Source of the DNA: Candidatus Polarisedimenticolia bacterium
Lineage (GTDB): Bacteria > Acidobacteriota > Polarisedimenticolia > Gp22-AA2 > AA152
Assembly: GCA_035764505.1 (NCBI GenBank)
Contig: DASTZC010000038.1
Coordinates: 1-25,392, forward strand
Reading direction: 5' to 3'
Length of the DNA: 25,392 nt
In this document: one piece after another, positions 2,751-24,571 of the stretch
How the letters are laid out: each line of letters starts with the position of its first letter
Numbering within the stretch: position 1 is the stretch's first letter
The notes under the pieces: model-generated
Told to the model about the DNA's origin: nothing
What the model saw: the letters and a program-made list of their open reading frames with translations, nothing else
The model's database searches: none
Translations under genes and position numbers: made by a program

Positions 2751-2802
2751 CGCTTTCGCTCCATGCAGGTTTCCGGCCTTCCCGCTCGCGCCACCCCCGC
2801 CG

Positions 2803-7794: not shown

Positions 7795-9092
7795 CCTCGG
7801 ACCTCCGGGATGCCGGCGGCGCGTGCCGCCCGGGAGCGCCAGAAATAATAAACGGGAACCCCCAGGAGAATGACCAGCGAGCCCATCAGCGCGTTGCGCG
7901 GGTCGGCTACGAAGGTGTTCAGGACGATCCCGGTCCCCGCGGCGATGAACAGGATCGGGGTCACGGGATAGAAGGGAGTCGGGAACGGACGCGGCGCGCC
8001 GGCACGGCTGCGGCGGAAGACCAGCAGCGCCACGCCGGCGAGCGCGAAGAAAATCCAGTCGGCGAAGACGGTGAAGCCCAGGAGCCGATCGTAGGTGTTG
8101 GTCAGGGCGAAGACGGCCGCCAGGGCTCCTTGGAGCAGGATGGCATAGGTGGGCGCCTTGAAGCGCGGGCTCACGCGCGCCAGCTGGCGGAAGAAGACGC
8201 CGTCGGCGGCCATGGCGTAATAGACGCGCGGCGCCGCGAGCAGCGACAGGTTCATGAAGCCGAAGGTGGAGACGACGATCAGCAGGCTCATCGCCTTGAC
8301 TCCTGCTTCCCCGGCCAGCCGCCCCGCTACCTCCGCCGCCGGCGTGCGGGTGGCCGCCAGCGCCGGCGCCCCCAGGACGTGCAGGTAGGCGACATTTGCT
8401 CCCACGTAGACCACGATGACGCACAGCACGCCGACCAGGATGGCGCGCGGCAGGTTGCGAAGGGGCTCTTTAACCTCCTCCGCCACGTAGTTCAGGTTCT
8501 GCCAGCCGCCGTAGGCGAACATCGCCGGCACCAATCCGGCGAAGAGCGCCGAAATCAGAGCGAATCCCCTCAGCCCCTCCGGCGCGACGGGCGACAGCGA
8601 GATTCCCGAAGCCCGGGTGAGAGCGAAGGCGCCGACAATCAGCGCGGCGAGGGCCAGGGTTTTCCCGAAGGTGATCACGTTGATCAGGATCGCCCCCGGC
8701 TTGATGCCGAGCGCATGGAAGCCGGCGACTCCCAGGAGGATCGCGACTGCGAGCGGCACGACCGCGGCGCGTCCGAATCCCGCCAGGCGGGCCACGTACT
8801 CCGAGAAGGCGACCGCCACCGCCGCCGTGGCGCCGGATTGGATGATGAACAGGAGCGACCAGCCGTGCAGGAACGCGACAAGTGGATGGAACGCCTCGCG
8901 GAAGAAAGCATACTGGCCTCCCACTCTGGGAAGCACGGTGCTCAGCTCGGCGAAGACGAAGGCCCCGGCGAGCGCAATCAGCCCCCCGGCGATCCAGACC
9001 AGCAAGATGAGCAGTGAAGTTCCGACCTTCTGCGCCACGACGTAGGAGTTCACGAAGATGCCCGAGCCGATGATGCCGCTCAGGACGATCAT
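7791..9092 (-). CDS. APC-superfamily amino acid permease. The true start is probably upstream, up to 9155.
   Basis: The 433-aa product opens directly on the transmembrane-helix-1 motif MIVLSGIIGSGIF. About 12 transmembrane helices, a GGQYAFFREAF loop and the overall layout are typical of APC transporters. The reading frame stays open upstream (TSTRSPPPPEGGSLDPSPTTESPFARSLTLFDAT) until a TAA. A strong SD (GGAAGGAGGA, plus 9159-9168) sits 4 nt before an in-frame CTG at 9153-9155. See findings. Confidence 0.8.
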   Translation of the reverse strand: MIVLSGIIGSGIFVNSYVVAQKVGTSLLILLVWIAGGLIALAGAFVFAELSTVLPRVGGQYAFFREAFHPLVAFLHGWSLLFIIQSGATAAVAVAFSEYVARLAGFGRAAVVPLAVAILLGVAGFHALGIKPGAILINVITFGKTLALAALIVGAFALTRASGISLSPVAPEGLRGFALISALFAGLVPAMFAYGGWQNLNYVAEEVKEPLRNLPRAILVGVLCVIVVYVGANVAYLHVLGAPALAATRTPAAEVAGRLAGEAGVKAMSLLIVVSTFGFMNLSLLAAPRVYYAMAADGVFFRQLARVSPRFKAPTYAILLQGALAAVFALTNTYDRLLGFTVFADWIFFALAGVALLVFRRSRAGAPRPFPTPFYPVTPILFIAAGTGIVLNTFVADPRNALMGSLVILLGVPVYYFWRSRAARAAGIPEVRG

Positions 9093-9389: not shown

Positions 9390-9779
9390 ATGGATCTCTC
9401 TCCCAGAGCCCTTTCCACAGGCATTCGTGTAAGCGAAAGCGAGCTTGCCTGGCGGTCCGAGGATCTCCAGTCCGTGATCGACGAGCTCATTGCAAGCGTT
9501 CAGGCCATCCTGGGTGGCGAAGTTCTCTTGCTGAGTGGGGGCGAAATCTGGGGGACCGTTCCGCAGCCATCGGGACCTCCCGGTGTGTATGCTTGGGAAG
9601 TCAAACCCAGATCGAGCGGAGAATCCTGGCAAAAGTTCGTTAGCCGTTCCGCGTTGGAAGCCAGTCAGGCGGCAAAGCGATTCTCGACGGAGATTCGAGA
9701 ATTGCCTTCACTTCCACCGGACTCAGAGGTTGTCTTCTGTCTGACCTGGGCTCGAGAAGAGGAGTATCAAGCTGTCTGA
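9390..9779 (+). CDS. Hypothetical protein from a low-GC orphan ORF.
   Basis: The 129-aa ORF has an ATG at 9390 and GGAAGGA 11 nt upstream. Its GC content is visibly lower than that of its neighbours. Codon usage is atypical, with AAA, AGT, TGT, TTC and A/T-ending codons. Its stop lies 4 nt before the ParB-like gene. I recognise no domain. Confidence 0.45.
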   Translation: MDLSPRALSTGIRVSESELAWRSEDLQSVIDELIASVQAILGGEVLLLSGGEIWGTVPQPSGPPGVYAWEVKPRSSGESWQKFVSRSALEASQAAKRFSTEIRELPSLPPDSEVVFCLTWAREEEYQAV

Positions 9780-9782
9780 ACG

Positions 9783-10718
9783 ATGTCCGAGGAATCTGAC
9801 ATGGGGGCGCTGACGGTCTTTCCGGAGCGCGAGAGTCCCCCGCGCGAGATCCTCAAGCTCGCCGAGGAGATCGAGGAGGACGGAGGGGCGGCGCTGGCGG
9901 CCTATCGCGAGCCGGTGGGGAAGAACTGGCAGATCTTCGCCATTCTGCCGCTGGCACGGGTCAAGCCGACGCCATACCAGCGCGACATCTCCAAAGCTCA
10001 TCTCGAGCGTCTCAAAAAGGCGATCGGCAGGCTGGATCGCTTCGTCGATCCGGTGGTGGTGGTGCGCGGGGGCGACGGGACCTATTGGACTCCCAACGGC
10101 AGCCATCGGCGAAGCGTGCTGGAGAAGCTGAAGGCGGCGACGATCCCGGCTATCGTCCTGGCGGAGCCCAAAGTGGCCTTCCAGATCCTGGCGCTGAATA
10201 CCGAGAAGGCGCACAACCTCAAGGAGAAATCGCTGGAAGTGATCCGCATGTATCGCGGGCTGCTGGAGGAGGAGCCGCGGCGGCACGAGGATTCTTTCGC
10301 CTTCCAGTTCGAGGAGCCCTACTTCGCGACTCTGGGGCTGCTCTACGAGGCACATCCCCGCTTCGCAGGCGGTGCCTTCGGATCGATCCTGCGGCGCGTC
10401 GACCGCTTCCAGAAAGAACCCCTGAAGGCGGCCTATAAGGAGCGTGAGCGGCGCGCGGCGCTGGTGGAGAAGGCCAGCGGGATCCTCGACAAGAAAGTGG
10501 AGAAGGTGAAGCGCCGCGGCATCCGCCATCCCTTCGTCAAGAATTTCGTCCTGGCGCGCTGCAACCCGCTGACCCGCGCCCGCAAGACGCTCCCTTCTTT
10601 CGACACCGCGCTCAAGCGCCTGATTCAGAATCTCGAGAGCTTTGACGCCGACGCCGTGCGCTACGACGAGGTGGCGCGCGCCGGGGTCTTCGCCGCCGCG
10701 GCGGCCGCACCGTCCTGA
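9783..10718 (+). CDS. ParB-like nuclease (ParB/Srx fold) N-terminal-domain protein.
   Basis: The product is 311 aa. PYQRDISKAHLERLKKAI...VDPVVVVRGGDGTYWTPNGSHRRSVLEKLKAATIPAIVL follows the ParB N-terminal-domain pattern (Y-Q-R..., hydrophobic beta strand, G-x-H/E-R-R, ...IP..V). The C-terminal ~180 aa have no recognised domain. An alternative start is the ATG at 9801, which has GAGGAA 6 nt upstream. Confidence 0.6.
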   Translation: MSEESDMGALTVFPERESPPREILKLAEEIEEDGGAALAAYREPVGKNWQIFAILPLARVKPTPYQRDISKAHLERLKKAIGRLDRFVDPVVVVRGGDGTYWTPNGSHRRSVLEKLKAATIPAIVLAEPKVAFQILALNTEKAHNLKEKSLEVIRMYRGLLEEEPRRHEDSFAFQFEEPYFATLGLLYEAHPRFAGGAFGSILRRVDRFQKEPLKAAYKERERRAALVEKASGILDKKVEKVKRRGIRHPFVKNFVLARCNPLTRARKTLPSFDTALKRLIQNLESFDADAVRYDEVARAGVFAAAAAAPS

Positions 10719-11472: not shown

Positions 11473-11566
11473 GCTTGAAATGTAGGTTCCCGCCGGGGCC
11501 GGATCAAGCAAGATACGCCCGCCCGGGCTGTGCTACTCTTGGCGCGCCTCAGCGTCGAGGGCCTAT

Positions 11567-12925
11567 TTGGCAACCGCGTCCCATCCGCCCGGATTCGTAA
11601 CTACCCATGCGCAGCCTCCCGCCGGAAAGAAAGGGGGGCGGCCGCTCCACACCAAAATCTTCTACGGCATGGCGGCGGGGACCGCTGCCGGAATCGCCGC
11701 CAATCTCCTTTGGGGCGACTCTCCGGCGCTGCAGAGCTTCATCACCAACGTCAGCTATCCCCTCGGACAGATCTTCCTGCGTCTCATCTTCATGGTGGTG
11801 ATCCCGCTGGTGGTCAGCGCCCTGATCGTCGGCGTGGCGGAGCTGGGGGACCTGAGGCGGCTCGGCCGCGTCGGGCTGAAGACGCTGGGCTTCACGATCG
11901 TGCTCAGCGCCATCTCGGTCCTGATCGGGGTGGCTCTGGCCAACCTCATCCGGCCGGGGGAGGGGCTTTCGGAAGAGTCACGCGCCGGGTTGTTGGAAGT
12001 CGTGGGAAAGCAGCCATCCGATCTGGGGAAGCCGCCCGAAGCCAAGAAAGGCCTGCAGATCCTTCTCGACCTGATTCCCCAGAATCCGGTGGAGGCGATG
12101 GTCAACGCCTTCCGGGGAGACATCCTGGCGGTCATGGTTTTCGCGCTGTTCCTGGGCGTCGCCTTGACGCGGGTCGAGAAGAAGCTGGCCGACCCGCTGC
12201 TGACCTGGCTGCAGGCGCTGTTCGAACTCTCGATGCAGGTGATCGGGATGGCCATGAGCCTGGCTCCCTACGGCGTCGCCGCGCTGCTGTTCACGCTGAT
12301 GGCGCGCTCGGGACTGGACGTGCTCCTGCGCCTGGCGGCCTACGTCGTGACCGTCCTGCTGGGTCTCGCGATCCACCAGTTCATCACCTACTCGCTGATG
12401 CTGCGCTTCATGGCGGGAACCTCGCCCCTGTTCTTCTTTTCGCGCATCCGCGAGGTGATGCTCACGGCGTTTTCGACTTCCTCGAGCAATGCCACGCTTC
12501 CCACCTCGCTGCGCGTGGCGGAGCAGGAGCTGGGGGTGCCGCGCCAGATCGGCGGCTTCGTCCTGACGCTGGGCTCCACCCTCAACCAGAACGGGACGGC
12601 GCTGTACGAGGGGATCACGGTCCTCTTCCTGGCGCAGTTCTACGGCGTCCACCTCACGCTGGCGTCGCAGGTCACGGTGGTTCTGCTCTCCATTCTGGCG
12701 GGCGTCGGCACCGCCGGTGTTCCCGGCGGCTCGCTGCCGCTGGTGATGGCGCTGCTGGCCACCGTCGGGGTTCCGGCAGAGGGGATCGGGATCATCCTCG
12801 GGGTGGACCGGATCCTGGACATGTGCCGGACCGTACTGAACGTCTCGGGAGATCTGGTGGCCGCCGTCTTCGTGGCCCGCAGCGAGGGAAAAACGCTCGA
12901 GATTCACACCGGATCGGCCCGCTAA
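11567..12925 (+). CDS. Dicarboxylate/amino acid:cation symporter (DAACS family; GltP/DctA-like).
   Basis: The product is 452 aa. LHTKIFYGMAAGTAAGIAANLL is the typical transmembrane-helix-1 start of DAACS proteins. Family-typical blocks are present, including TLPTSLRVAEQELGVP (the serine-rich HP1 region), TLNQNGTALYEGITVLF and VSGDLVAAVFVA. The start is a TTG at 11567 with GAGGG 5 nt upstream. The alternative ATG at 11666 lacks an SD. Confidence 0.85.
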   Translation: MATASHPPGFVTTHAQPPAGKKGGRPLHTKIFYGMAAGTAAGIAANLLWGDSPALQSFITNVSYPLGQIFLRLIFMVVIPLVVSALIVGVAELGDLRRLGRVGLKTLGFTIVLSAISVLIGVALANLIRPGEGLSEESRAGLLEVVGKQPSDLGKPPEAKKGLQILLDLIPQNPVEAMVNAFRGDILAVMVFALFLGVALTRVEKKLADPLLTWLQALFELSMQVIGMAMSLAPYGVAALLFTLMARSGLDVLLRLAAYVVTVLLGLAIHQFITYSLMLRFMAGTSPLFFFSRIREVMLTAFSTSSSNATLPTSLRVAEQELGVPRQIGGFVLTLGSTLNQNGTALYEGITVLFLAQFYGVHLTLASQVTVVLLSILAGVGTAGVPGGSLPLVMALLATVGVPAEGIGIILGVDRILDMCRTVLNVSGDLVAAVFVARSEGKTLEIHTGSAR

Positions 12926-12947
12926 GCCCTCCATTCCCTGTGCTAGG

Positions 12948-15900
12948 ATGCGTCCCGTCATGTCGCGATCCCGCATTATTCTCGTCGCTGTCCTGGCCCT
13001 CGGCGCCGCCTACCTCGCCGCTTCTTTCCGCCACTTCGAGGAAAAGCCCTGCTTTCGGGTGGTCGACGCGCCGCTTCTGGGCTCTGCTTCCCGCCTGGTC
13101 CAGCCGGGCTGGCGCTTCGTGCCGCGCTTCCTGGGGCGTGTCAGTGAATACCCCACCGGCGAGGTGAAGCTGCGGGACGACCTGACGGGAGCCGCGGCGG
13201 CGCGCAGCCGCGAGGGGGCCAAGGTCGACGTCGAGGCGGAGCTGACCTACTCGATCCCGCCCGAGGGAGTGCTCGCGCTGCACCGGGAGCACGGTCCCCG
13301 CTTCGAGACGGAATGGCTTTCCGAGAAGCTGCGCTCGCGCACGGCGGAGCGCATCGCGTCGGTCTCCTACGATCTGGTGCGCAACCGCGACCCGGAGCTG
13401 GCCAGCGGCGTCCGGGGCGCCCTCAAAGCGGATGTGGAGTCCTCGGGCATCCGGCTCGGCGCGCTGCGGATCTTCGAAGTGGCCGCGGTCGGGGAAGCCT
13501 CCGGGGAGATCCTGAAGGTCCCTGCGCAGCCGCTGGCGAAGAAGGTGGTGCTCGTCGGTCTGGACTCCTTCGACTGGCGCATCGCCGATCCCCTGCTCAG
13601 GCAGGGGAAGATGCCGAACCTCGCGGCGCTCATCGCCCGCGGCACGCGCGCCAATCTGCGCACCTTGAGGCCCATCCTCTCGCCGGTCATCTGGACCAGC
13701 ATCGCCACCGGCGTGAAGCCGTCGCGCCACGGCATCGTCGATTTCGTCGTGACTTCGCGCGACACCGGGGCCCTCGTGCCGGTCACCAGCGCCATGCGCC
13801 AGGTGCCGGCGCTCTGGACGTTGCTGAGCCGCCAGGGGCTGGAGGTCAGCGTGGTCGCCTGGTGGGCCACCTGGCCCGCGGAGACGGTGCGCGGCAGCGT
13901 CGTCACCGACCGCGTCGCCTTTCAGCTCTTCGAAGACTCGATCAAGCAGGACTGGCGCAGCACCGATCCGGAGAAGAACAAGGGGAAGACCTACCCGCCG
14001 GAGCTGTTCGACGCGGTGCGCGACAAGATCCGGGTGCCGGCCGAGGTCACCGATGAGCAGGTGGCCTGGTTCCTGCCGGGGGGCCGCTTCCCGGCGAATC
14101 TGACGGCGCCGCAGGCCGATCTCCTGAACCGCTTCCGCACCGTCATCGCCGCCGGAGAGACCTACCATGCGGTCGCCCTGGATCGGCTGCGCCGTCAGGA
14201 CGCTGCCCTGCGGATGTTCTACTACGAGGGGCCCGACACCACCTCGCACCTCTTCATGAAGTACCGGCCGCCGCTGCTGGCAGGGACTTCGCGCCAGGAG
14301 ATGGAGCTGTTCGGCGGAATCATCGATCGCTACTACGAGCGCCAGGACCGCTTCCTTGGCGAGATTGTGGAGGCGGCCGGCAGCGACTGCGATTTCCTGG
14401 TGGTCTCCGACCATGGCTTCAAGTCGGACAACAACCGTCCGCCGAATTCCGATTCGACCATCGAGGCGGGGAAGGCGGCCGACTGGCACACGCCGGTCGG
14501 GGTGTTCGTCGCCGCCGGTCCGGACTTCAAGGCAGCCTCCGAGCTGGGCGCCGCCTCCGTCCTGGACGTGGCGCCGACGGTGCTGACCCTGTTCGGGATG
14601 CCGGTGGCGCGCGACATGGACGGACAGCCACTCTCGGAGGCCTTCAAAGCGGACTTCCTCACCGCCCATCCGGTGGCCTGGATCGACTCCTACGGCGGTG
14701 TGCGCCAGCAGGAGGCGGAATCGGCGGCGGTCGCCTCGGCGGGCGATGCCGCGATGATCGAGAAGCTGCGCTCGCTCGGCTACATCGGCGAGGAGCGCCT
14801 GACGGCGACCAACAACCGCGGCATCCTGGCGCTGGAAGACGGCGACGTCGACTCCGCGATCGGCAGCTTCGAGAAAGCGCTGGGCTCCGGTGGGGAGATC
14901 GAGGAGATGGCGCTGACCAACCTGGCGCGCGCCTGGCTGGTGCGCGGCGACCTGGTCAAGGCCCGGGAATATGCCGAGAAGGCGATCGCCACGGGATCCG
15001 GCAACAAGGTCGCAATGACCATCCTTTCCGGTATCCAGGTCAAGGAGGGGGACACGGCGGGCGCCGAGAAGAGCCTGCGCGCGGCGCTGGACATCGATCC
15101 GACCCTCGTCCTGGCCCATTCCAAGCTCGGCGAGCTGTACCAGAAGCAGGGAAACCTGGACGCCGCGCTGGCGGAGTTCCACAAGGTGATCGACATTGCC
15201 CCGCTCAGCCCCATCGAGTTCAACAACATCGGCAACATCCATCGCAAGCGCGGCGAGCTGGACCAGGCGATGGAGGCTTACCGTGATGCGCTGCGCTGCG
15301 ATGCCCAGTACATCGGCGCCTACAACAATCTGGGGCTCTGCCTGCAGGAGAAAGGGAAGCTGGACGAGGCGGAGGCGCTGTACTCCAAGGCGCTGGCGAT
15401 CCGCCCCGAGAACCCGATCCTGCGCAACAGCCTGGGCACGCTGCGCGCTCTCAAGGGGGACAAGGAAGGGGCGATTGCCGAATTCGACCGGGCGACGAAG
15501 GCCGATCCCGACTGGCCGGTGGCGCAGGGAAACCTTGCCACGCTCCTGTTCGAGACCGGCAAGCTGGATCAGGCCCGCCCCGCGTTCGAGCGCTGGGCCA
15601 AAGCCGAGCCGAAATCGACCGAGCCGGTCCTCGGGCTGGGTCTGCTCAGCCTGATGCAGAAGCGCCGTGAGGAGGCGGTCGGCTACTTCCAGCAGGCGCT
15701 TTCCCTGGACCCCGGCAGCTTCCGGGCCCACGTGGCCCTGGGAGAGATTCTCCTGAAGGAAGGAAAGCTGGACCAGGCGCAATCTCACCTGGAGAGCGCC
15801 GCCCGCATCGAGCCCGACAGCGCGCGCGTCTACGGCTCGCTGGGAAGGATCTACATGCAGCGTGGCCGCAAGCAGGAGGCCGTTCAGGCCTTCCGCCACT

Positions 15901-15962
15901 CGCTCCGCCTGCAGCCCGATCAGCAGGAGATCAGGTCCCTCCTCTCGGGCCTGGGCGGCTGA
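12948..15962 (+). CDS. Multidomain protein: N-terminal transmembrane anchor plus SPFH/band-7-like domain, an alkaline-phosphatase-superfamily core of the type I phosphodiesterase/nucleotide pyrophosphatase type, and C-terminal TPR repeats.
   Basis: The product is 1004 aa. Residues 1-~190 have a transmembrane helix (IILVAVLALGAAYLAA) followed by an SPFH-like stretch (VQPGWRFVPRFLGRVSEYPTGEVKL...VDVEAELTYSI). Residues ~195-600 have VVLVGLDSFDWRIADPLLRQGKMPNL...LSPVIWTSIATGVKPSRHGIV (metal-binding D, nucleophile T/S region) and VVSDHGF (the DHG motif), typical of the AlkP/ENPP core. Residues ~620-1000 contain at least eight TPR-like 34-aa repeats (A..A...Y..AL..DP patterns). Confidence 0.8.
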   Translation: MRPVMSRSRIILVAVLALGAAYLAASFRHFEEKPCFRVVDAPLLGSASRLVQPGWRFVPRFLGRVSEYPTGEVKLRDDLTGAAAARSREGAKVDVEAELTYSIPPEGVLALHREHGPRFETEWLSEKLRSRTAERIASVSYDLVRNRDPELASGVRGALKADVESSGIRLGALRIFEVAAVGEASGEILKVPAQPLAKKVVLVGLDSFDWRIADPLLRQGKMPNLAALIARGTRANLRTLRPILSPVIWTSIATGVKPSRHGIVDFVVTSRDTGALVPVTSAMRQVPALWTLLSRQGLEVSVVAWWATWPAETVRGSVVTDRVAFQLFEDSIKQDWRSTDPEKNKGKTYPPELFDAVRDKIRVPAEVTDEQVAWFLPGGRFPANLTAPQADLLNRFRTVIAAGETYHAVALDRLRRQDAALRMFYYEGPDTTSHLFMKYRPPLLAGTSRQEMELFGGIIDRYYERQDRFLGEIVEAAGSDCDFLVVSDHGFKSDNNRPPNSDSTIEAGKAADWHTPVGVFVAAGPDFKAASELGAASVLDVAPTVLTLFGMPVARDMDGQPLSEAFKADFLTAHPVAWIDSYGGVRQQEAESAAVASAGDAAMIEKLRSLGYIGEERLTATNNRGILALEDGDVDSAIGSFEKALGSGGEIEEMALTNLARAWLVRGDLVKAREYAEKAIATGSGNKVAMTILSGIQVKEGDTAGAEKSLRAALDIDPTLVLAHSKLGELYQKQGNLDAALAEFHKVIDIAPLSPIEFNNIGNIHRKRGELDQAMEAYRDALRCDAQYIGAYNNLGLCLQEKGKLDEAEALYSKALAIRPENPILRNSLGTLRALKGDKEGAIAEFDRATKADPDWPVAQGNLATLLFETGKLDQARPAFERWAKAEPKSTEPVLGLGLLSLMQKRREEAVGYFQQALSLDPGSFRAHVALGEILLKEGKLDQAQSHLESAARIEPDSARVYGSLGRIYMQRGRKQEAVQAFRHSLRLQPDQQEIRSLLSGLGG

Positions 15963-17093: not shown

Positions 17094-17666
17094 ATGGCGA
17101 TCGTCATGCTGATCGGCTTTGGGATCCTGGTCGTGATCACGGCGGGATACCTCGCCGGCATCTACAACCAGCTCGTGCAGATCAAGGTGAACGTCGACAA
17201 GTCGTGGGCCAACATCGAGGTGCTGGAGAAGCAGCGCTACGACGAGATCCCGAAGCTGGTGAAGGTGTGCGAGGGATACATGCAGTACGAGCGCGGCACG
17301 CTCGAGAAGGTGATCGCGGCCCGCAGCAGCTTCCTGCAGGCCAGAGGGCCTGGGGAGATGGCCCAGGCGGGCACCGAGATGGCGGGGGCGCTGAAGAGCC
17401 TGTTCGCGCTGGCCGAGGCCTATCCGGACCTCAAGGCGAACCAGAGCTTCACGCAGCTGCAGCAGCGGGTCAGCGCGCTGGAGAACGAGATCGCCGATCG
17501 CCGCGAGTTCTATAACGAGTCGGTGACCATCAACAACGCGCGCATCCAGCAGGTTCCCTACGTCTTCCTGGCGGGAGCGCTTTCGATGTCGCAGCGCGAG
17601 ATGTACAAGATCGCTCCCACCGAGAAGGTGTCGCCGGAGATCAAGTTCGCGATGCCGGCGGCCTGA
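17094..17666 (+). CDS. lemA: LemA family protein.
   Basis: The product is 190 aa. It has an N-terminal transmembrane helix, then LVQIKVNVDKSWANIEVLEKQRYDEIPKLV...RSSFLQA...ALAEAYPDLKANQSFTQLQQRVSALENEIADRREFYNESVTINNARIQQVPYVFLAGAL, which matches LemA throughout. AGGAGG lies 3 nt upstream of the ATG. Confidence 0.85.
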   Translation: MAIVMLIGFGILVVITAGYLAGIYNQLVQIKVNVDKSWANIEVLEKQRYDEIPKLVKVCEGYMQYERGTLEKVIAARSSFLQARGPGEMAQAGTEMAGALKSLFALAEAYPDLKANQSFTQLQQRVSALENEIADRREFYNESVTINNARIQQVPYVFLAGALSMSQREMYKIAPTEKVSPEIKFAMPAA

Positions 17667-17672
17667 ACCCCA

Positions 17673-17710
17673 AAAAAGGGGGCGGCCGTCGCCGGCCGCC
17701 CTCTAGTTTT
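17673..17710. terminator. Bidirectional rho-independent terminator between the convergent lemA and outer-membrane-protein genes.
   Basis: The sequence is AAAAAA-GGGGGCGGCCG-tcgc-CGGCCGCCC-TCTAGTTTT. It has a perfect 9-10 bp GC stem, an A-run on one side and a T-run on the other, so it can terminate transcripts from either strand. Confidence 0.6.
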
Positions 17711-17730
17711 GAGCGAGCTGCAGAGTTCCG

Positions 17731-18741
17731 CTATTTGCCCCCGCCGAACTTGAAAGCCACTCCGGCGTGCAGCGAGTTGAAGGCGATGCTGTCGCGGCCG
17801 CGATTGTCGGCGGGCCCGATGGCGAAGTGGCCCCCTTCGTTCTGGGGTATGGGGTCGGTCACCAGCCCGTCCCAGTTGGACATCGCATAGCCGACCCAGA
17901 AGTCGAGGGCCCCGTAGCTCCAGACCGCTTTCAGATCGTAGTCGCGGATCTCGCCCCGGATGTTGTCATCCGATCCCGTGAACTCGTCGTCTGCCGGGCC
18001 GCTCTGGGCGAAGCTCTGGAAGGAGTTGCCTTCCGTGTCAGCCATCAGGAACGACCAGGTGGCGCTTCCCGCCATACCGAAATGCTCGGTGAAGCCCCAT
18101 TTCACCTTGGCGCCCAGCTTGAAGCCCAGTGCGTCGGACTCGAAGTGCTTCCCCTGGCGGTAATAGTTGCCGTAGTTGTCGGCCCCCTCGAAGGTCTGGT
18201 CCTCCTCGTAGGAAGCGACCCGCAGCCCCGCCAGCCAGCCGATCGTGACTTTCTTGCCCGGCTCGAAGGAGCGGATGTAGTCGATGTCGATCGTGTCGGC
18301 CTGGACCTTTCCGGTCGTGCTGAAAGTGACGCCCGCCGGATTGTAGATGTACATGCCGCCGGAGTTGCCGTAGCCGAAGATGGTCGGATAAACCCCGCCG
18401 AGCAGGGTGTTCTCCTCCTTATCCTCGTTGTCGAAGCCCCACCACGAGACCTGCAGCTTGCCCATCTCGCCGAAGCCGTAGCCGAAGGTGATCTTCGCGG
18501 TGAAGTCGGAGTCGTTGTCGAGGACGAGACGATCCATCGTGGTCGTCGTGCCGAAAACGACGTGGTTGGCATAGTGCTGATCGAGGCTGGTGGGCTGGGT
18601 CATGCCCAAATCGAGCGCGACGTAGAAACCCTTGAAATCGGTATCGTCGGCCAGAGCTGGAGACAGGCCGAAAGAGAGGGTGAGGAGCCCGACGGCGAGC
18701 CACAGGACGCGGCCGGCCGGGACCCCGGTGCGAATCTTCAT
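17731..18741 (-). CDS. Outer-membrane beta-barrel protein (putative porin, MOMP-like), paralog 1.
   Basis: The product is 336 aa. A signal peptide (MKIRTGVPAGRVLWLAVGLLTLSFGLSPALA) is followed by alternating amphipathic beta-strand patterns rich in G/Y/F/W. The C-terminus is ...AGVAFKFGGGK, with an aromatic near-terminal strand. Confidence 0.65.
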   Translation of the reverse strand: MKIRTGVPAGRVLWLAVGLLTLSFGLSPALADDTDFKGFYVALDLGMTQPTSLDQHYANHVVFGTTTTMDRLVLDNDSDFTAKITFGYGFGEMGKLQVSWWGFDNEDKEENTLLGGVYPTIFGYGNSGGMYIYNPAGVTFSTTGKVQADTIDIDYIRSFEPGKKVTIGWLAGLRVASYEEDQTFEGADNYGNYYRQGKHFESDALGFKLGAKVKWGFTEHFGMAGSATWSFLMADTEGNSFQSFAQSGPADDEFTGSDDNIRGEIRDYDLKAVWSYGALDFWVGYAMSNWDGLVTDPIPQNEGGHFAIGPADNRGRDSIAFNSLHAGVAFKFGGGK

Positions 18742-18862
18742 TCAGTGGTCTCCCTTGGTTGGTTCACATAGGAATTGGATCGGAAAACCTACGGAACGCG
18801 GCTGGGGTTTCTGCAACCACCTCCTTTCCGGCGAAGCGAAGCGTCGAAAGCTTTGCGGGTTA

Positions 18863-19882
18863 TCAGGGAGAGGTGAAGCGCTGCCGGCCGAAGCGCCAGA
18901 GCAGGCCCACCTCGAAGCTCGAGAAGGATAAGGAATCGTCGACGGAGCTCTCGCCGACCCCTTGGAACCCTACGGCCGGGACTTGATCGCGTGGGAAGCC
19001 GTTCCACTGGGAGTTCGTCAGCCCCAGGGAGATGTCGACCGGGCCGGCCGACCAGACGCCGCGCAGCTCCAGGTCCAGGATGCTGCCGCTGAAGTTGTCG
19101 TCTTTTCCGGAGCGCGACTCACTGAGCCCGAGCTCGACAATCCTCTGGCTGGCTTTGCCTTCCGAGGTCCCGATGAGGGACGAATAGGCCATTCCGGCAC
19201 GCAGGCTGAAGTGCTGGCTCAGATGAAAATCTCCCGCCGCGCCCACCCGGATGCCGATGGCGTCGACGTCCAGGCTCTTGTCCTGAAGGTAGGTGTAGTA
19301 GCCGTCGAAGCCCTCGAAAGACTGTTCCTGCTCGTAGCTGGCCGTACGCAATCCCGCGAGCCATTTGAGACCGAAATGCTCGGTGATCTCGAGGGTGTCG
19401 GCGTAATCCAGATCCCAGGTGGAGGCTTTGATGTTGAAAGTTCCGGCGAAGCTCACCGGCAGCGTCGAGTCGCAACCGCCGGAGCTCTGGTTGCACAGGT
19501 AGAAAGAGCCGTAATAACCGTAGCCGAAAAGCTGTGGGTAGACGGTGCCGGTCTGGGTGAAGTTCTCCGCATCGTCGTTCTCGAAGGTCCAATACGAGAC
19601 CTGGATGCGGCCATGGTTCGGGCCGAACGCATAACCCAGCCCGGCGCCCCATGCCAGGTCGGCGTCGTGCTCGAGTGAGATGCGCTCCGACCGGGGGGCT
19701 GAGACGAGGGCGAGAGGCTGATCCACTCCGGTAGGCTGCGCCAGCGCCAGATCCAGCGCCAGCAGCCAGCCGCGCGCATCCTCGGCGTGCGACGCTCCCG
19801 TGAACAGGAAAAACAAGGAAAGACAAAGCCATGCGTGGCGCATGGCGCTCGAGCGGCAACGTTTTTTCGCTTGGGTGGTCAC
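18863..19882 (-). CDS. Outer-membrane beta-barrel protein (putative porin, MOMP-like), paralog 2.
   Basis: It is a paralog of 17731..18741; compare GLKWLAGLRTASYEQEQSFEG with TIGWLAGLRVASYEEDQTFEG, and QVSYWTFENDD with QVSWWGFDNED. The most likely start is the GTG at 19882, 5 nt after AAGGAG, giving MTTQAKKRCRSSAMRHAWLCLSLFFLFTGASHA-ED, a signal peptide. The six-frame ORF extends to 19888. Confidence 0.65.
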   Translation of the reverse strand: MTTQAKKRCRSSAMRHAWLCLSLFFLFTGASHAEDARGWLLALDLALAQPTGVDQPLALVSAPRSERISLEHDADLAWGAGLGYAFGPNHGRIQVSYWTFENDDAENFTQTGTVYPQLFGYGYYGSFYLCNQSSGGCDSTLPVSFAGTFNIKASTWDLDYADTLEITEHFGLKWLAGLRTASYEQEQSFEGFDGYYTYLQDKSLDVDAIGIRVGAAGDFHLSQHFSLRAGMAYSSLIGTSEGKASQRIVELGLSESRSGKDDNFSGSILDLELRGVWSAGPVDISLGLTNSQWNGFPRDQVPAVGFQGVGESSVDDSLSFSSFEVGLLWRFGRQRFTSP

Positions 19883-20026
19883 GCACACTCCTTCCGGAAC
19901 GGACCTCCCCCGTCGGGGGCGCCCTTTAATAATCCGAGCCCACGGGGGAAGTCAAGTCTGATCTTGGATTTGGCCAGCTAACCCCGCCTGCGGGAAGCTC
20001 GCGAGGAGGAGCGGAAGCCTGCGGGA

Positions 20027-20060
20027 GAATATCCGGCCGGGCGTAGAAGAGCCCGGCCGG
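20027..20060 (-). terminator. Probable intrinsic terminator after the MtrB/PioB-like gene.
   Basis: On the minus strand the sequence reads UGA-AAUG-CCGGCCGGGC-ucuucuac-GCCCGGCCGG-AUAUUCUCC. It has a perfect 10-bp GC stem directly after the stop, but the U-tract is only modest. Confidence 0.5.
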
Positions 20061-20064
20061 CATT

Positions 20065-22509
20065 TCAGCGGAAGTCGTAGCGGACCAGGAACCCGACGAT
20101 CTGGTTGGTGTAGTCGAGGAAATCGAGGCCCAGGTAGACTGCCTCAGAGGAGCCGGGATCGTTGCCCGGGTCCCCCATGTAGGGGTCGTTGAAATCGGAG
20201 GCGAAGTTGTCCTCGTCCCACTTCTCGTACCAGTAGCGGAACATGACGTCGAGGTTCTTGCGCACCGAGCAGGTCAGCCCGAGCTGGGCGATCGCCAGGG
20301 TGGTCTTCACCTCGGGGAACTGGGTCAGGGTGGTGTCGCCCGAAGCCGCGCCGCCCGGGACGAAATCGGTGTGGATCAGGTCCGTTCCGCGCGACCAGGA
20401 GAGATCGCCGTTCAGCTGCCACTTGCGGCTCTCGGAGAAGAAGGTCTGGAACGAGACGTTGGCGGTCTGGTATTTGTCGGTGGTGTCGGAAGACCAGTCG
20501 TCCAGGGGATTGTCGGTGCCGATGCCGCCGGTGACGTTGCGGTAGCGGCTGGCCAGGGCGTACTCCCGGTTCTCCCAGGTGTAATCCCCCGAAACGCTCC
20601 AGCGATTGTTGGGCACGAAGCTCGCGCCCACCGAATAAGTCTTGATCTCGTCGTCGATGCGGCCGGCGAGGAGGATGTCGTAGGTCTCGGGGATCGTGTC
20701 GAAATCCCGATCTTCCTGGATGGTGATGTGGTCGCCGATCTTCTTCCCCGTGTTCGGGTCGAAGAACTCGTCCTTGGTCACCGTCGCCTCGGCGAACAGG
20801 CTGACGGTCGGGCTCAAGGCCAGGTCGAGGAGCAGCGCCCCGTAGTCGCGGTCGCGATCGGTCCAGATGAACTTCCGCTCCCCTTCGTTCGCGGCGGCGA
20901 TGTTGGCCTCGCCGATCGGGAAAGAGGCCTCTTCGAAGTATTCGGCGTTGTATTCGTCCGCCCGGCGCTCCTGGTGCCGGGCCGTGACCCGGATGGTGAG
21001 CATGTCGTTGACGTCGAAATCGAGCGCCGCCTTCAGCGTGTCCTCGTCCGATTCGGTCACCGCGGCGATGTTGCGGTCCATTCCCTCGCGATCGTAGGCG
21101 ACGATGATGTCCATCCAGCTCGTGGGACGGAAGCCGAGGGAGGCCCCCAGGTTGGTCTTCTCGTAATCGAAAGGCACACTTTGCCGGGCGAGACGGTTCG
21201 TGGTGGCCCCGCAGGCGTTGGCGTTGCCGCACATGGTGAACTGGTAGTCGGTGGCGACGTAATCGTCGAAAACCAGGCTGTGCGTCTTGTTATCGTAGTT
21301 GTAATCGCGGAACCAGGCGGCGTAGCGAAACCAGGAAAGCGGCCGCCCCGAGACGTCGACCGACCCGAGGTTCATCTCGTACTTGCCGTCGAGGCTGTTG
21401 GCGGGCAGCGGCGCCGCGGTCGCCAGGAGAAGCGAGTTGCTTGTCTTGGCAAGGAACGGGTCGTCCTGGGTCGTGGTGCTCTGGTAGTAGGTGGCGTTGA
21501 TCCGGCTGTGGCCGGCGAAGCTGGCGCCACCGTAAAGCCTCCAGGCGAACAGGTCGCTGTTGCTCCAGGGAGACATGCGCATGAAGGCAGGGTTGGCGGT
21601 ATTGGCGTTGACGGGCACTTCGGTCAGGAACTGCTGATCGTCCCAGGTGACCGAGGTCGTGCCGGTGGTGAACTCGGAGGCGATGACGGCTCCCCCCACG
21701 TTGAAGTGGGGTGCCACGTATTCCGCCCCTACCCGCGCCTCGTCGGTCTTGAACTCGAGGGGTGCCGCGACCTCGGCGGGATCGAGGGCGAAGTACATGC
21801 CGAGGGACTGCGGAAAGAAGCCTCCCCGTCGCTCCCGCTGCCCCCCCAGGTCCACGATCCAGTTCCGCGTAGGGGTGAAGTTGAAGTTGAAGGCGGCCAC
21901 CTGCCGCTGCCACCCCACCTGCGTGTCCTGCGCGTTCTGCTGGATGGCGCTCTTGATCAGCGCTCCCTTGGTACCGGCGTCCCACTCGCCGTCGGCGGGC
22001 GCGGTGTCGACGCTGTTGGGCGCCGCCTGCACCGCGCTCTGCAAGGCGTCATCGAGCGTGAAGATGGCCCCTTCCTGCCGGGCATAGAGCTGCTTGGCGC
22101 GATCGGACCAGCGCCGCGGGTTCTCGGTCCAGGCGAAGGAGAACTTCCAGAGGTCCTGCTTGCCGGTATCGAAGAAGATGCGCTGATCGAGCTGCGAGAC
22201 GTCGCGCGCCGCCAGATCGAAGTAGTAGCCGGCCTTCGGCTCCCAGCTGAACTGCAGGAACTCCAGAACGAAGCCGTTGGGGACTTCGCGATATTCGTTG
22301 AACTTCGCCGAGTTGTTGGGGTCCTCCTGGAGGTACCACTCCGGGCCCCCCACGACCTCCCCGCTCACCTGGGCGTCCTCAGGCGGGGGGGTCTCCTCCG
22401 GCGTCACCGGCTTGGGAGGCTCGGACTGCGCGGCGGCGGGAATCATCGAGGCGACGAGCACCGCCGGGAGGATGGCAACCAGCCAGGCCCGCTTCGGGAA
22501 TGTCTTCAT
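20065..22509 (-). CDS. MtrB/PioB/MtoB-family outer-membrane beta-barrel (porin component of a porin-cytochrome electron conduit).
   Basis: The product is 814 aa, with a signal peptide (MKTFPKRAWLVAILPAVLVASMIPAAAQ), very high Y/W/F/D/N/T content and alternating strand patterns. Its size matches PioB/MtoB (~800 aa). The gene is 9 nt downstream of a decaheme cytochrome gene and has an RBS, GGAGGAAGC-ATG. The C-terminal strand is ...VGFLVRYDFR. Confidence 0.75.
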   Translation of the reverse strand: MKTFPKRAWLVAILPAVLVASMIPAAAQSEPPKPVTPEETPPPEDAQVSGEVVGGPEWYLQEDPNNSAKFNEYREVPNGFVLEFLQFSWEPKAGYYFDLAARDVSQLDQRIFFDTGKQDLWKFSFAWTENPRRWSDRAKQLYARQEGAIFTLDDALQSAVQAAPNSVDTAPADGEWDAGTKGALIKSAIQQNAQDTQVGWQRQVAAFNFNFTPTRNWIVDLGGQRERRGGFFPQSLGMYFALDPAEVAAPLEFKTDEARVGAEYVAPHFNVGGAVIASEFTTGTTSVTWDDQQFLTEVPVNANTANPAFMRMSPWSNSDLFAWRLYGGASFAGHSRINATYYQSTTTQDDPFLAKTSNSLLLATAAPLPANSLDGKYEMNLGSVDVSGRPLSWFRYAAWFRDYNYDNKTHSLVFDDYVATDYQFTMCGNANACGATTNRLARQSVPFDYEKTNLGASLGFRPTSWMDIIVAYDREGMDRNIAAVTESDEDTLKAALDFDVNDMLTIRVTARHQERRADEYNAEYFEEASFPIGEANIAAANEGERKFIWTDRDRDYGALLLDLALSPTVSLFAEATVTKDEFFDPNTGKKIGDHITIQEDRDFDTIPETYDILLAGRIDDEIKTYSVGASFVPNNRWSVSGDYTWENREYALASRYRNVTGGIGTDNPLDDWSSDTTDKYQTANVSFQTFFSESRKWQLNGDLSWSRGTDLIHTDFVPGGAASGDTTLTQFPEVKTTLAIAQLGLTCSVRKNLDVMFRYWYEKWDEDNFASDFNDPYMGDPGNDPGSSEAVYLGLDFLDYTNQIVGFLVRYDFR

Positions 22510-22518
22510 GGCTTCCTC

Positions 22519-23457
22519 CTACCGCATGAACCGGACGCCGGACGGATGGTTGGAGCCATGAATCTGCGAATGGCAGTTCATGCACCCCTTGTCGAACATC
22601 CGGCTGTTCGGAAAGAACTCGGGCGCCGAGCTGGCGTCGGAGTAAGGCTGCGTCGGATGGCGGGTCTCGTCGTGGCACTGCTGGCAGAGTCGCGGCAGCT
22701 TGGCGACCAGCAGCCGCGGATGGAGCGAGCCGTGCGGGTCGTGGCAGTTGGCGCAGTTCTCCTTCACCGGCGGGTGCTCCCAGAGGAACGGGGCCCGCTT
22801 CTCGGCGTGGCAGGAGAAGCAGTTCTCGACCACCGAGTTCTGGCGCAGCATGGACGGGCCCGGCCCGCCGTGCACGTTGTGGCAGGACGAGCAGGTCATC
22901 TGCTTCTCGCGCAGCGGCATGTGGGCCGAGCGCATGAGCGACGCCTTGCGCCGCAGGTGGCAGCTGGTGCAGGTGTCGAACTCGGTGGCCTTGGCGAACA
23001 GGAAGGGCGCCGGCTCCCCCTGCTGGTGGATCTTGTGGCAGTTCAGGCAGGACAAATTGCGCGTCTCGTGCGGGCTCCCGAGCCAGCGGGTGTGTTCTTC
23101 GCCGCGCCCGTGGCAGGTGAGGCAGACGGCGTTCAGCTCCGTGGCGGAGAGCTTTCCGGGATTGCGGATGTCCTTCTTGTCGCCCGACTCCATGTGGGCC
23201 GTGCCGGAGCCGTGGCAGGTCTCGCAGGCATGGTGCCCGTCCCAGTCGGCGATCCCCGTCTTGCCGTGCGGGTTGAGCTTGAAGTTCTTCGCCTGGTCTT
23301 CGTGGCAGGCCCCGCAATCCGCCATCTCCGCCTTGACCGTGGGCGGCGGCGCCGCCGCCGTGCCTTCCTGTCCCTTGCTCGGGGATGACGAGACGGCCAC
23401 GATGCCCAGGAGGATCAGGGGCACGCCAGCCAAGTCTAACCATCGGCACATGCGCAT
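22519..23457 (-). CDS. Periplasmic decaheme c-type cytochrome (MtrA/DmsE/MtoA/PioA family).
   Basis: There are ten CXXCH motifs: CGACH, CETCH, CLTCH, CLNCH, CTSCH, CSSCH, CFSCH, CANCH, CQQCH and CMNCH. The product is about 312 aa, matching the MtrA/MtoA size. The signal peptide is MRMCRWLDLAGVPLILLGIVAVSS, the start is the ATG at 23457, and GAGGAG lies 7 nt upstream. The six-frame ORF begins at a GTG at 23472. Confidence 0.85.
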   Translation of the reverse strand: MRMCRWLDLAGVPLILLGIVAVSSSPSKGQEGTAAAPPPTVKAEMADCGACHEDQAKNFKLNPHGKTGIADWDGHHACETCHGSGTAHMESGDKKDIRNPGKLSATELNAVCLTCHGRGEEHTRWLGSPHETRNLSCLNCHKIHQQGEPAPFLFAKATEFDTCTSCHLRRKASLMRSAHMPLREKQMTCSSCHNVHGGPGPSMLRQNSVVENCFSCHAEKRAPFLWEHPPVKENCANCHDPHGSLHPRLLVAKLPRLCQQCHDETRHPTQPYSDASSAPEFFPNSRMFDKGCMNCHSQIHGSNHPSGVRFMR

Positions 23458-23849
23458 CGCTCGGCTCCTCACAGCTTGCCGGATAGAGAGGGTGACTTGG
23501 GTTGGATGGAACAGCTTGAATTGTGCGTCAAGGCCCTGCCGATCGCCGGAATCGAGCGGTTGGGACGAGACTGAACAGACAACTGCAACGAATGAGCGTC
23601 TGTTGTGACCTTGCTTCCTGCAAACCCTGGGGGAAAGAGCGGGGTGAATCCTAGGATCGGAACGTGAAGCTTGTCAAACGATTTCTTGTGAGGAGTGAGG
23701 AAGGCTCGAAGAGAGATCAGCGGCTTCCCGCCTTCCCCACGGCACTTTTCCGCGCTCCTTCCTCTCTCCTCCAGCAAAATCTTCGCTTCCCGCACGCCTG
23801 ATTTGAGTCCCGGATGAGGATCAAAACCCTTGCGGGAGCAATCCGCCTG

Positions 23850-24278
23850 TCACGAAATCAGGATCTCGCGGCCCATGACGCGGCGCATCGTCTCGGAGGC
23901 GAAGATCCGATCGTGGCGCGCGATGTCGGCCAGGCTGATCACCCCGATCGGGTGGCCGGCCGTGTCCTGCACCAGGATGCGGGACTTGCGATTGTTCGCC
24001 ATCAGCCCCTCGACGTGCCGGAGATCATCGTCGATGCGGCACGAAAGCACCTGGTGCGTCATGACTTCGGTCACCGGAGTGCGCCTGGCATCGATCCCGA
24101 CCGCGCAGGCGCGCAGCGCGAGATCCCGATCGGTCACGACCCCCACGGTCACCCCTTCAGCGTCGCAGACCGGCAGAAATCCGACGTTGGCATCGCGCAT
24201 CTTCAGGGCCACGATCTGGATGGTGTCGTTTACCTTGCAGAAGACGATTTCCCGGCTGAGGATTTGCTGGCACCTCAT
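23850..24278 (-). CDS. CBS-pair (tandem CBS domain) protein.
   Basis: The 142-aa product has two CBS-like repeats (KVNDTIQIVALKMRDANVGFLPVCDAEGVTVGVVTDRDL and VMTHQVLSCRIDDDLRHVEGLMANNRKSRILVQDTAGHPIGVISLADI) and no other domain. Confidence 0.7.
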   Translation of the reverse strand: MRCQQILSREIVFCKVNDTIQIVALKMRDANVGFLPVCDAEGVTVGVVTDRDLALRACAVGIDARRTPVTEVMTHQVLSCRIDDDLRHVEGLMANNRKSRILVQDTAGHPIGVISLADIARHDRIFASETMRRVMGREILIS

Positions 24279-24571
24279 GGCGTTTACCTCCCCGCGCGCC
24301 GGTGGGCGCGCGTCGGTCGATGGGTGTGTCCTTCCACGCCTTGACAGTGCAAGCGATGTGCCGGGTCAAGGAAAACCGGGAGGGAAGGGATGAGCGAAAC
24401 GCCGATGGGGCGACCGAAAACGATCGCCCTCGAAGCGATCGATCGACTTGGAAGCATCGGGTTTTCTTGGAATTCCCCGTTGCGTCCCGCAGGGAGACGG
24501 GCTAGGATGGGCTCGCCCGACGCGCCGATCCCATCCACGGCCCGGGCCGCTCTCGAGCCGGAGAACAGCTG

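Follow-up and report, generated by a model that had tools for sequence, protein, structure and literature searches.

A decahaem cytochrome and outer-membrane barrel gene pair of probable MtrAB/PioAB type in Candidatus Polarisedimenticolia

The window analysed here is the whole of contig DASTZC010000038.1, a stretch of 25,392 bases from a metagenome-assembled genome (MAG) that belongs to Candidatus Polarisedimenticolia, a class of Acidobacteriota. On its minus strand, a gene for a decahaem c-type cytochrome is followed directly by a gene for a long outer-membrane barrel. We give a probability of about 85% to the reading that the two genes are one transcription unit for a porin-cytochrome conduit of the MtrAB/PioAB type. 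In its make-up the pair is a two-gene, long-barrel module in the style of PioAB and MtoAB.

The cytochrome, the barrel and their linkage

The original prediction described a 312-amino-acid (aa) secreted protein with exactly ten CXXCH haem-binding motifs, encoded 9 nt upstream of an 814-aa barrel, and both genes and the spacer between them are read from the sequence as described. The cytochrome reading frame runs from an ATG at 23457 to a TAG at 22521–22519, with CXXCH motifs at residues 48, 78, 112, 137, 163, 189, 213, 235, 258 and 292; a six-frame scan of the 25,392 bases found no CXXCH beyond these ten. By inspection only, the N-terminus (MRMCRWLDLAGVPLILLGIVAVSSS) resembles a Sec signal peptide: it is charged at its start and continues into a hydrophobic core, past which there is no lipobox cysteine. 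The NCBI model of this protein is 301 aa long and begins 11 codons later, leaving out window positions 23425–23457, a start that would cut off the charged N-terminus of the signal peptide. The 312-aa start is supported because the cytochrome of the 93%-identical, syntenic relative L011 begins MRISRWL.

On TIGR03508, the curated model for decahaem cytochromes of the DmsE/MtrA family, the cytochrome scored 245.6 bits against a cut-off of 192.2 and covered profile positions 4–258 of 258, a score comparable to the 252 bits of bona fide PioA. Rival multihaem models gave far less: 51.8 bits for NrfB (cut-off 184), 25 for NrfH (134) and 14 for OmcA/MtrC (209), with the NrfB models overall at 38–52 bits against cut-offs of 167–184. 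With the DmsE model passed and NrfB and NrfH far under their cut-offs, the protein is very unlikely to be a multihaem cytochrome of the NrfB/NapC type. The Geobacter GSU2203-family model NF041028 gave 221.9 bits, also under its cut-off (325). A protein 100% identical to the cytochrome is named "DmsE family decaheme c-type cytochrome" by NCBI.

From residue 48 to residue 309, the cytochrome also aligned with 6r2q_A, the MtrA chain of the solved Mtr complex (E 1e-59), and the alignment takes in all ten haems. The references for comparison were mtrCAB of Photobacterium sp. DA100 (locus L010, from the plasmid collection; MtrC 730 aa, MtrA 318 aa, MtrB 656 aa) and pioABC of Rhodopseudomonas palustris (PioA 540 aa, PioB 810 aa, PioC 94 aa). 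Identity was 43.5% to the decahaem domain of PioA (213 bits), 42.9% to MtrA of S. baltica (197 bits) and 36% to Photobacterium MtrA (174 bits). When the cytochrome, 15 relatives and the canonical Photobacterium MtrA were aligned, all ten CXXCH motifs were conserved. The cytochrome contains 25 histidines, and among those outside the motifs, residues 64, 88, 130, 144, 196, 228, 242, 300 and 304 were invariant in the 17 sequences and residues 179 and 267 nearly so. These eleven could be distal ligands, as would be expected for ten bis-histidine haems.

As a side observation, chain A of PDB entry 6r2q carries the molecule name "Cystathionine beta-synthase", while its sequence is that of decahaem MtrA. 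The name is a labelling error and could mislead automated annotation.

The barrel gene has its ATG at 22509 and its TGA stop at 20067–20065, and the N-terminus of the product (MKTFPKRAWLVAILPAVLVASMIPAAA/QS) resembles a signal peptide by inspection. The Pfam model MtrB_PioB (PF11854) matched the protein with 228.7 bits (E 2e-67, cut-off 23). By BLASTP it aligned end to end with R. palustris PioB over 818 columns, at 24% identity and E 9e-36 (814 vs 810 aa). All 97 barrel homologues that were scored have PF11854 (96 of them at 42–93% identity and one at 24%), and many carry the NCBI name "MtrB/PioB family". An AlphaFold model of the barrel was built on 62 homologues, with a predicted local distance difference test score (pLDDT) of 87.2 and a predicted template modelling score (pTM) of 0.81. 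Within the 26–28 strands originally expected, 26 long strands were counted in this model; they are joined by short turns at one end of the barrel and by long loops at the opposite end. When the model was compared with the Protein Data Bank (PDB) by Foldseek, the top match was MtrB (6r2q_B; E 1e-35; template modelling (TM) score 0.89 for the target and 0.72 for the query), which led the list by 25 orders of magnitude. TonB-dependent receptors came next, at TM scores of 0.3–0.4 and root-mean-square deviations (rmsd) above 10 Å. The model has no N-terminal plug domain, and the barrel has no Pfam match to Plug or TonB_dep_Rec. Both the PF11854 match and the fold comparison indicate that it is not a TonB-dependent receptor or an unrelated outer-membrane protein.

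Some results weigh against the conduit reading. The barrel scored 172.9 bits on TIGR03509, the NCBIfam model for MtrB/PioB, under its cut-off of 240. A sequence search of the PDB with the barrel (phmmer) gave no match, MtrB included, and BLASTP against the canonical 656-aa Photobacterium MtrB gave no significant match. Because of these results, membership of the narrower MtrB/PioB family rests on Pfam, the fold and the PioB alignment. In addition, neither cytochrome-maturation genes, nor an inner-membrane or periplasmic partner, nor a surface cytochrome was found in the 25 kb of the window or in the 12 kb of L011. The original proposal to search both proteins with family models was thus borne out by TIGR03508 and PF11854 and went the other way for TIGR03509. 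On the latter model, relatives in the window's clade scored 155–235 bits, PioB 816 and canonical MtrB 551; because the window's barrel reaches only 173, it is a divergent branch of the MtrB/PioB superfamily that lies outside this narrower model.

The gene junction reads ...CGG TAG GAGGAAGCC ATG AAG..., and the GGAGGA ribosome-binding site of the barrel gene overlaps the cytochrome stop codon. This overlap and the 9-nt spacer suggest co-transcription and coupled translation. The strong GC hairpin that had been predicted at the end of the pair is present: ten GC-rich base pairs form an uninterrupted stem around a loop of 8 nt (arms CCGGCCGGGC/GCCCGGCCGG, 20060–20033), and RNAfold gave −34.5 kcal/mol for an 80-nt segment containing it. 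No T-run lies 3' of the hairpin, which explains why it is missing from the output of the terminator scan; its role could be to end transcription or to stabilise the transcript. On the 5' side, TTGACA-18-TAGGAT was the only promoter-like match in positions 17500–24500 and is a candidate sigma-70-like promoter by consensus match only. The promoter block (CGTTTGACAAGCTTC...TTCCGATCCTAGGAT) is identical upstream of the pair in L011 and L012, where the surrounding sequence has diverged. A sigma-54 promoter was also looked for by eye 5' of the cytochrome gene, prompted by the sigma-54 activators near some relatives; it was unconvincing and was dropped.

The linkage of the two genes extends beyond the window. 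In every related locus that spans both, the cytochrome gene lies directly 5' of the barrel gene, while the flanking genes vary, and in the first nine related loci fetched only these two genes were common with the window. Measured against L011, the cytochrome has a dN/dS of 0.10 and the barrel one of 0.11; at values of about 0.1, both genes are under purifying selection. The other frames over the two genes also contain open reading frames (ORFs), one of them an antisense ORF of 1005 aa (20371–23388, plus strand). None of them matches Pfam, and they are shadow ORFs typical of GC-rich DNA.

Direction of electron flow and rival explanations

By homology with the solved Mtr complex, the cytochrome would be exported by Sec and its ten bis-histidine haems attached covalently in the periplasm. 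It would then be inserted into the lumen of the 26-strand barrel, where the haem chain would act as an insulated wire that links the periplasm with the cell surface. The inner end of the wire would trade electrons with carriers of the periplasm or inner membrane whose genes lie elsewhere in the genome, and the outer end with extracellular redox partners, either soluble or surface-bound. A surface cytochrome of the MtrC type is not encoded at the locus and would not be needed. What the data establish is the family of each protein, the fold, the linkage of the two genes and the purifying selection on them; that a complex forms and the haems are loaded, and what the partners and the direction are, is inferred.

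Nothing in the locus itself specifies which way electrons flow. As the original prediction held, neither the direction nor the inner-membrane partner can be read from it, as no partner lies in the 25 kb. In the six-frame CXXCH scan there was no CymA/NapC, ImoA, mtoD/mtoC or other cytochrome in the window. A tblastn search of the window with Photobacterium MtrC gave no significant match (sub-threshold hits at E 0.18–0.36 only, inside the cytochrome gene), and a search with PioC, a high-potential iron-sulphur protein (HiPIP), gave none either (best E 0.27). The predicted absence of MtrC/OmcA, CymA/ImoA and PioC from the 25 kb is thus upheld. An ImcH-like gene was likewise without a match in the window, and beyond the pair no window gene with an assigned function has a redox function.

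We lean weakly towards outward transfer, in which the cell would respire high-potential acceptors outside it, for example Fe(III), Mn(IV) or humics, over oxidation of Fe(II) or of an electrode. The lean arises because nearly half of the related loci carry a gene for an ImcH-like quinol oxidoreductase beside the pair. Among clade loci with a barrel at least 45% identical and one flank of 1.5 kb or more, the gene was found in 21 of 47 (~45%). It lies 3' of the barrel gene in 17 of the 40 loci with enough downstream sequence, mostly within ~600 nt, and 5' of the cytochrome gene in 4 of 24; in the Polarisedimenticolia relative L001 it is convergent with the barrel gene and 73 nt past it. Its product has 457–491 aa, three hydrophobic segments, one CX3CH just past the third segment and five CXXCH, and matches curated models through a weak NrfH-like core only. 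This is the architecture of ImcH, an inner-membrane cytochrome that Geobacter needs for high-potential extracellular acceptors and that has so far been implicated only in quinol oxidation and outward transfer (PMC6295460). Also counted for outward flow are the lack of a HiPIP or an MtoD-type carrier in the window, the published prediction of metal-oxide reduction for Ca. Polarisedimenticola, which is commoner in metal-rich sediments (PMC8528874), and the presence of MtrAB-only clusters in an iron-reducing enrichment (PMC6933298).

Other considerations pull the opposite way. The lean is indirect, being drawn from relatives and not from the window's own genome, and likeness to ImcH was judged by architecture against the published description, not by alignment to the Geobacter protein. 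Among the systems that have been characterised, the nearest with two genes and a long barrel are PioAB and MtoAB, and both run inward. Some relatives of the pair adjoin a quinol-dependent nitric oxide reductase, which would fit Fe(II) oxidation coupled to denitrification equally well. Moreover, direction cannot be inferred from the sequences of the MtoA/PioA family (PMC8805035).

If the neighbour is taken as a guide to the clade as a whole, the window's clade may be a large one, common in the environment, of stand-alone conduits, each with a long PioB-like barrel and a decahaem cytochrome, that are habitually teamed with an ImcH-like quinol oxidoreductase and have no surface cytochrome. We put this forward tentatively and consider it possible but doubtful. 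If true, it would describe a hybrid in which an inner-membrane step of the Geobacter type is joined to an outer-membrane step of the Shewanella/Rhodopseudomonas type, and a possible respiratory route to extracellular acceptors for uncultured Acidobacteriota, including Polarisedimenticolia. At the level of the clade, and not of the window, the ImcH-like neighbour is a testable candidate for the missing inner-membrane partner. Its linkage to an MtrAB-type pair also suggests a pathway architecture that was not found by a 2018 survey, which reported 19 ImcH homologues in Acidobacteria and no mtrAB/mtoAB beside imcH (PMC6295460).

The rival that survives best, and the one towards which the original prediction leaned, is a dedicated inward conduit as in PioAB/MtoAB: Fe(II), a mineral or an electrode would be oxidised outside, and the electrons would pass to a periplasmic carrier and the respiratory chain. 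The two-gene layout with no MtrC fits this, as do the 800-aa PioB-like barrel, which aligns only with PioB and not with MtrB, and a cytochrome marginally nearer to PioA than to MtrA (213 vs 197 bits). The quinol-dependent nitric oxide reductase and cytochrome oxidase genes beside some relatives are, moreover, possible sinks for electrons from Fe(II). However, neither a HiPIP nor an MtoD-like monohaem cytochrome nor CymA/ImoA is encoded in the window, which also holds no sign of autotrophy; the N-terminal extension of PioA is missing from the cytochrome; and the recurrent neighbour among the relatives is of the ImcH-like type, so far linked only to outward transfer (PMC6295460). MtrAB-only clusters also occur in an iron-reducing enrichment (PMC6933298), and MtoA/PioA is not a function-specific clade (PMC8805035). 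We therefore regard a dedicated inward conduit as a real though less probable alternative to outward transfer.

Since MtoA and PioA do not form function-specific clades (PMC8805035), phylogenetic placement of the cytochrome would not settle the direction. The placement among MtrA, MtoA, PioA and DmsE that had been proposed was obtained in part. A family search of 1.84 billion representatives at 50% clustering returned 408 clusters at E ≤ 1e-30. In a neighbour-joining tree of 118 sequences, the window's clade was separate from the Shewanella/Photobacterium MtrA group and from the PioA group; the tree was star-like, its deep nodes are unreliable, and it held no MtoA or DmsE reference. Three cluster look-ups returned PioA (Rhodopseudomonas) and one MAG each of Acidobacteria, Methylomirabilis and Nitrospinota, with no MtoA or DmsE reference among them.

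A DmsEF-like module, passing electrons to a non-cytochrome surface reductase encoded elsewhere and thereby to a soluble non-metal acceptor such as DMSO or iodate, is improbable. The best-scoring curated model of the cytochrome is named for DmsE, and this family serves extracellular DMSO and iodate reduction (PMC9732548). Yet the barrel is PioB-like and not DmsF/MtrB-like, and no molybdopterin oxidoreductase gene adjoins the pair in the window or in the related loci inspected. Pfam scans of the window's larger ORFs detected neither a molybdopterin oxidoreductase nor a DmsAB-type gene, and in L005 a gene with a molybdopterin-binding domain lies ~8.7 kb upstream of the pair.

It is more improbable still that the pair is what remains, decaying or silent, of a module that was acquired horizontally and left nonfunctional for want of partners. 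The lack of partners in the window, the porin genes that stand in place of the relatives' ImcH-like gene, and the integrases near the pair in L003 and L013, which suggest mobility, could be taken in that sense. Both frames are nevertheless intact, with the ten haem motifs and the conserved histidines all present; the promoter-like block is conserved, and dN/dS against the 93%-identical, syntenic L011 is ~0.1. Nor need the partners be linked to the pair, as in Shewanella, where cymA is unlinked to mtrCAB.

Finally, the notion that there is no conduit at all, with a TonB-dependent receptor or unrelated porin merely adjacent to an NrfB/NapC-type periplasmic multihaem, draws on weak secondary hits to the models of NrfB, NrfH and cytochrome c3/c7, on the TonB-dependent receptors lower in the Foldseek list and on the TIGR03509 score, and it is close to refuted by the DmsE-model score against those of NrfB, by a fold near MtrB and far from these receptors, with 26 strands instead of 22 and no plug, and by the strict conservation of the gene pair as a unit.

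Surroundings of the pair in the window and in related loci

The features of the pair and the ImcH-like genes located in relatives are listed in Table 1.

Table 1. Positions of the gene pair and its candidate signals in the window, and of ImcH-like genes in related loci
Feature	Position	Strand	Description
Decahaem cytochrome gene	window 22519–23457	−	312 aa, stop codon included; MtrA/DmsE/PioA/MtoA family
Spacer between cytochrome and barrel genes	window 22510–22518	−	9 nt; GGAGGA ribosome-binding site over the cytochrome stop
Outer-membrane barrel gene	window 20065–22509	−	814 aa, stop codon included; long PioB-like form, MtrB/PioB superfamily
GC-rich hairpin	window 20033–20060	−	10-bp perfect stem, 8-nt loop, 4 nt past the barrel stop
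Candidate sigma-70-like promoter	window 23648–23677	−	TTGACA, 18-nt spacer, TAGGAT; ~190 nt 5' of the cytochrome start
ImcH-like gene	L001 3574–5028	−	assigned by architecture
ImcH-like gene	L006 8427–9809	+	assigned by architecture
ImcH-like gene	L008 14823–16298	+	assigned by architecture
ImcH-like gene	L009 6354–7727	+	assigned by architecture

On the 3' side of the barrel gene, the window continues with two Legionella_OMP-like porins, followed by LemA, a GIDE-like protein and a large SPFH-phosphodiesterase-TPR protein. The porins are paralogues, 35% identical (17731–18741 and 18863–19888, both minus strand), and lie directly 3' of the barrel gene; L011, L015 and L058 likewise have a similar porin next after the barrel. 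In the window and in L011, porin genes occupy the position that the ImcH-like gene has in relatives. The large protein (12948–15962, plus strand; 1004 aa) joins three parts, SPFH/Band-7, type I phosphodiesterase/nucleotide pyrophosphatase and, at the C-terminus, a long array of TPRs. This is an unusual fusion, and its gene is followed by those for the GIDE-like protein and LemA. On the 5' side, the cytochrome gene is preceded by a gene for a CBS-pair protein and then by an amino-acid permease gene truncated by the contig end.

Elsewhere the window encodes an ABC transporter, an aminotransferase, a second permease, TerB and DUF1684. The transporter operon has three genes: a binding protein (5564–6619), a permease (4728–5567) and, last, a CysA/PotA-like ABC ATPase fused to two stretches matching universal stress protein (Usp; 2803–4728, minus strand). 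The 567-aa aminotransferase ORF (6721–8424, minus strand) overlaps an amino-acid permease gene (7791–9092, minus strand) by ~630 nt; its true start is probably much further downstream, because its Pfam domain begins at residue 256. Four long ORFs on the plus strand (1974–2861, 9390–9779, 9783–10718 and 11530–13167) have neither a Pfam match nor a haem motif; they could be genes specific to the lineage, or else shadow ORFs of GC-rich DNA. Scanned against Rfam and for tRNAs, the window gave no hit.

Synteny was considered as a guide to function in the window and set aside, as only the gene pair is conserved across the fetched loci, except L011. Further synteny was seen only in the closest relatives, with the CBS gene, porin and permease conserved in L011 and the CBS gene in L012.

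Around the pair in some relatives (L008 12403–18594; L009 3478–14729; L016 from about 2774–3239 onward; L075 from about 1153 onward) there are gene clusters encoding a pentahaem periplasmic cytochrome (~385 aa, ExtKL/c554-like), a TIGR04053 radical-SAM/SPASM protein, a quinol-dependent nitric oxide reductase (761–771 aa) and a GAF-kinase/sigma-54 activator pair. These clusters hint that nitrogen-oxide respiration, or the sensing of NO, is linked to the pair. In L003 and L013, which are Polarisedimenticolia-like with barrels 66–67% identical to that of the window, a gene for a PAS-LuxR regulator lies just 5' of the cytochrome gene and a phage-type integrase gene 1–9 kb off (L003 128–1360 and 9063–9881; L013 6637–7869 and 8254–8925), which suggests that the conduit module can sit on a mobile island. 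In L002 (DASROJ010000370.1), the cytochrome-barrel pair stands on a contig labelled "Patescibacteria group bacterium". Patescibacteria are generally thought to be without an outer membrane, and this contig is therefore probably mis-binned.

Comparison with known conduits

The claim that the pair would be a new instance in a lineage where such conduits are uncharacterised was overstated. NCBI already names the cytochrome and the barrels of relatives, and acidobacterial homologues have been published: PioA/PioB homologues in Acidobacteria (PMC10654088), mtrCAB in Acidobacteriia (PMC8805035) and cytochrome-barrel clusters in Ca. Polarisedimenticola (PMC8528874). The pair is a further example of an established conduit type whose family names are already in public annotation. 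Homologues number in the thousands in metagenomes, and the locus itself is unsurprising: in a 90%-clustered collection, 6125 cytochrome homologues were found at E ≤ 1e-3, and the best 120 of the 6125 were all at least 55% identical. What the window adds is one more uncultured acidobacterial lineage, Ca. Polarisedimenticolia, with a trans-outer-membrane wire of the MtrAB/PioAB type, in support of earlier genome-based suggestions that the group is active in metal or humic redox cycling.

Unlike the porin-cytochrome (Pcc) systems of Geobacter, the window's module is MtrAB-type, and the GSU2203 model stays at 221.9 bits against its cut-off of 325. Geobacter ImcH shares its architecture with the product of the gene that often adjoins the pair in relatives, and the window itself has no ImcH-like gene. 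DmsEF of Shewanella, which serves extracellular DMSO and iodate reduction, has in common with the window the principle of a cytochrome in a barrel, and the best curated model of the window's cytochrome is that of the DmsE family; unlike DmsEF, the window's pair has no dmsAB-type reductase genes nearby.

A further comparison is with MtrCAB of Shewanella (6R2Q) and of Photobacterium sp. DA100. The window's cytochrome is 36–43% identical to MtrA over ten haems, the barrel model superposes on Shewanella MtrB (TM 0.89), and the 26 strands counted in the model match the number reported for MtrB-type barrels (PMC10654088). Unlike these systems, the window has no MtrC/OmcA gene. Its barrel is ~160 residues longer, and in the model the excess is found in long loops that standard outer-membrane barrel topology would place outside the cell. 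Similarity between the barrel and MtrB is undetectable by BLASTP or phmmer, and canonical MtrB scores 551 bits on TIGR03509 vs 173 here.

MtoAB, with MtoD and CymA/ImoA, is known from Sideroxydans lithotrophicus ES-1 and Gallionella, where chemolithotrophic oxidation of Fe(II) or minerals has been proposed, and is likened to the window by published description only. As in the window, a short (~310-aa) decahaem cytochrome without an N-terminal extension precedes the barrel and there is no MtrC (PMC3274759, PMC4412085, PMC10654088). In contrast to MtoAB, the window's pair has no mtoD, cymA/imoA or mtoC neighbour.

PioAB(C) of R. palustris TIE-1, which serves phototrophic Fe(II) oxidation and electrode uptake, also has a cytochrome gene followed by the gene for a barrel of ~810 aa, and no surface cytochrome. 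The barrels are colinear, and the decahaem domains are 43.5% identical, both scoring ~250 bits on TIGR03508. The differences are the 270-aa N-terminal extension of PioA, the HiPIP PioC, a PioB score on TIGR03509 of 816 bits vs 173, and the window's host lineage, the Acidobacteriota, which is non-phototrophic. The cytochrome aligns solely to PioA residues 276–540, and because the ~270-aa N-terminal extension is missing, its size fits the MtoA-type arrangement. The original prediction that the pair is closer to pioAB/mtoAB than to mtrCAB is thus supported: the barrel aligns with PioB end to end and not significantly with the 656-aa MtrB, and the published size description supports the likeness on the MtoA side.

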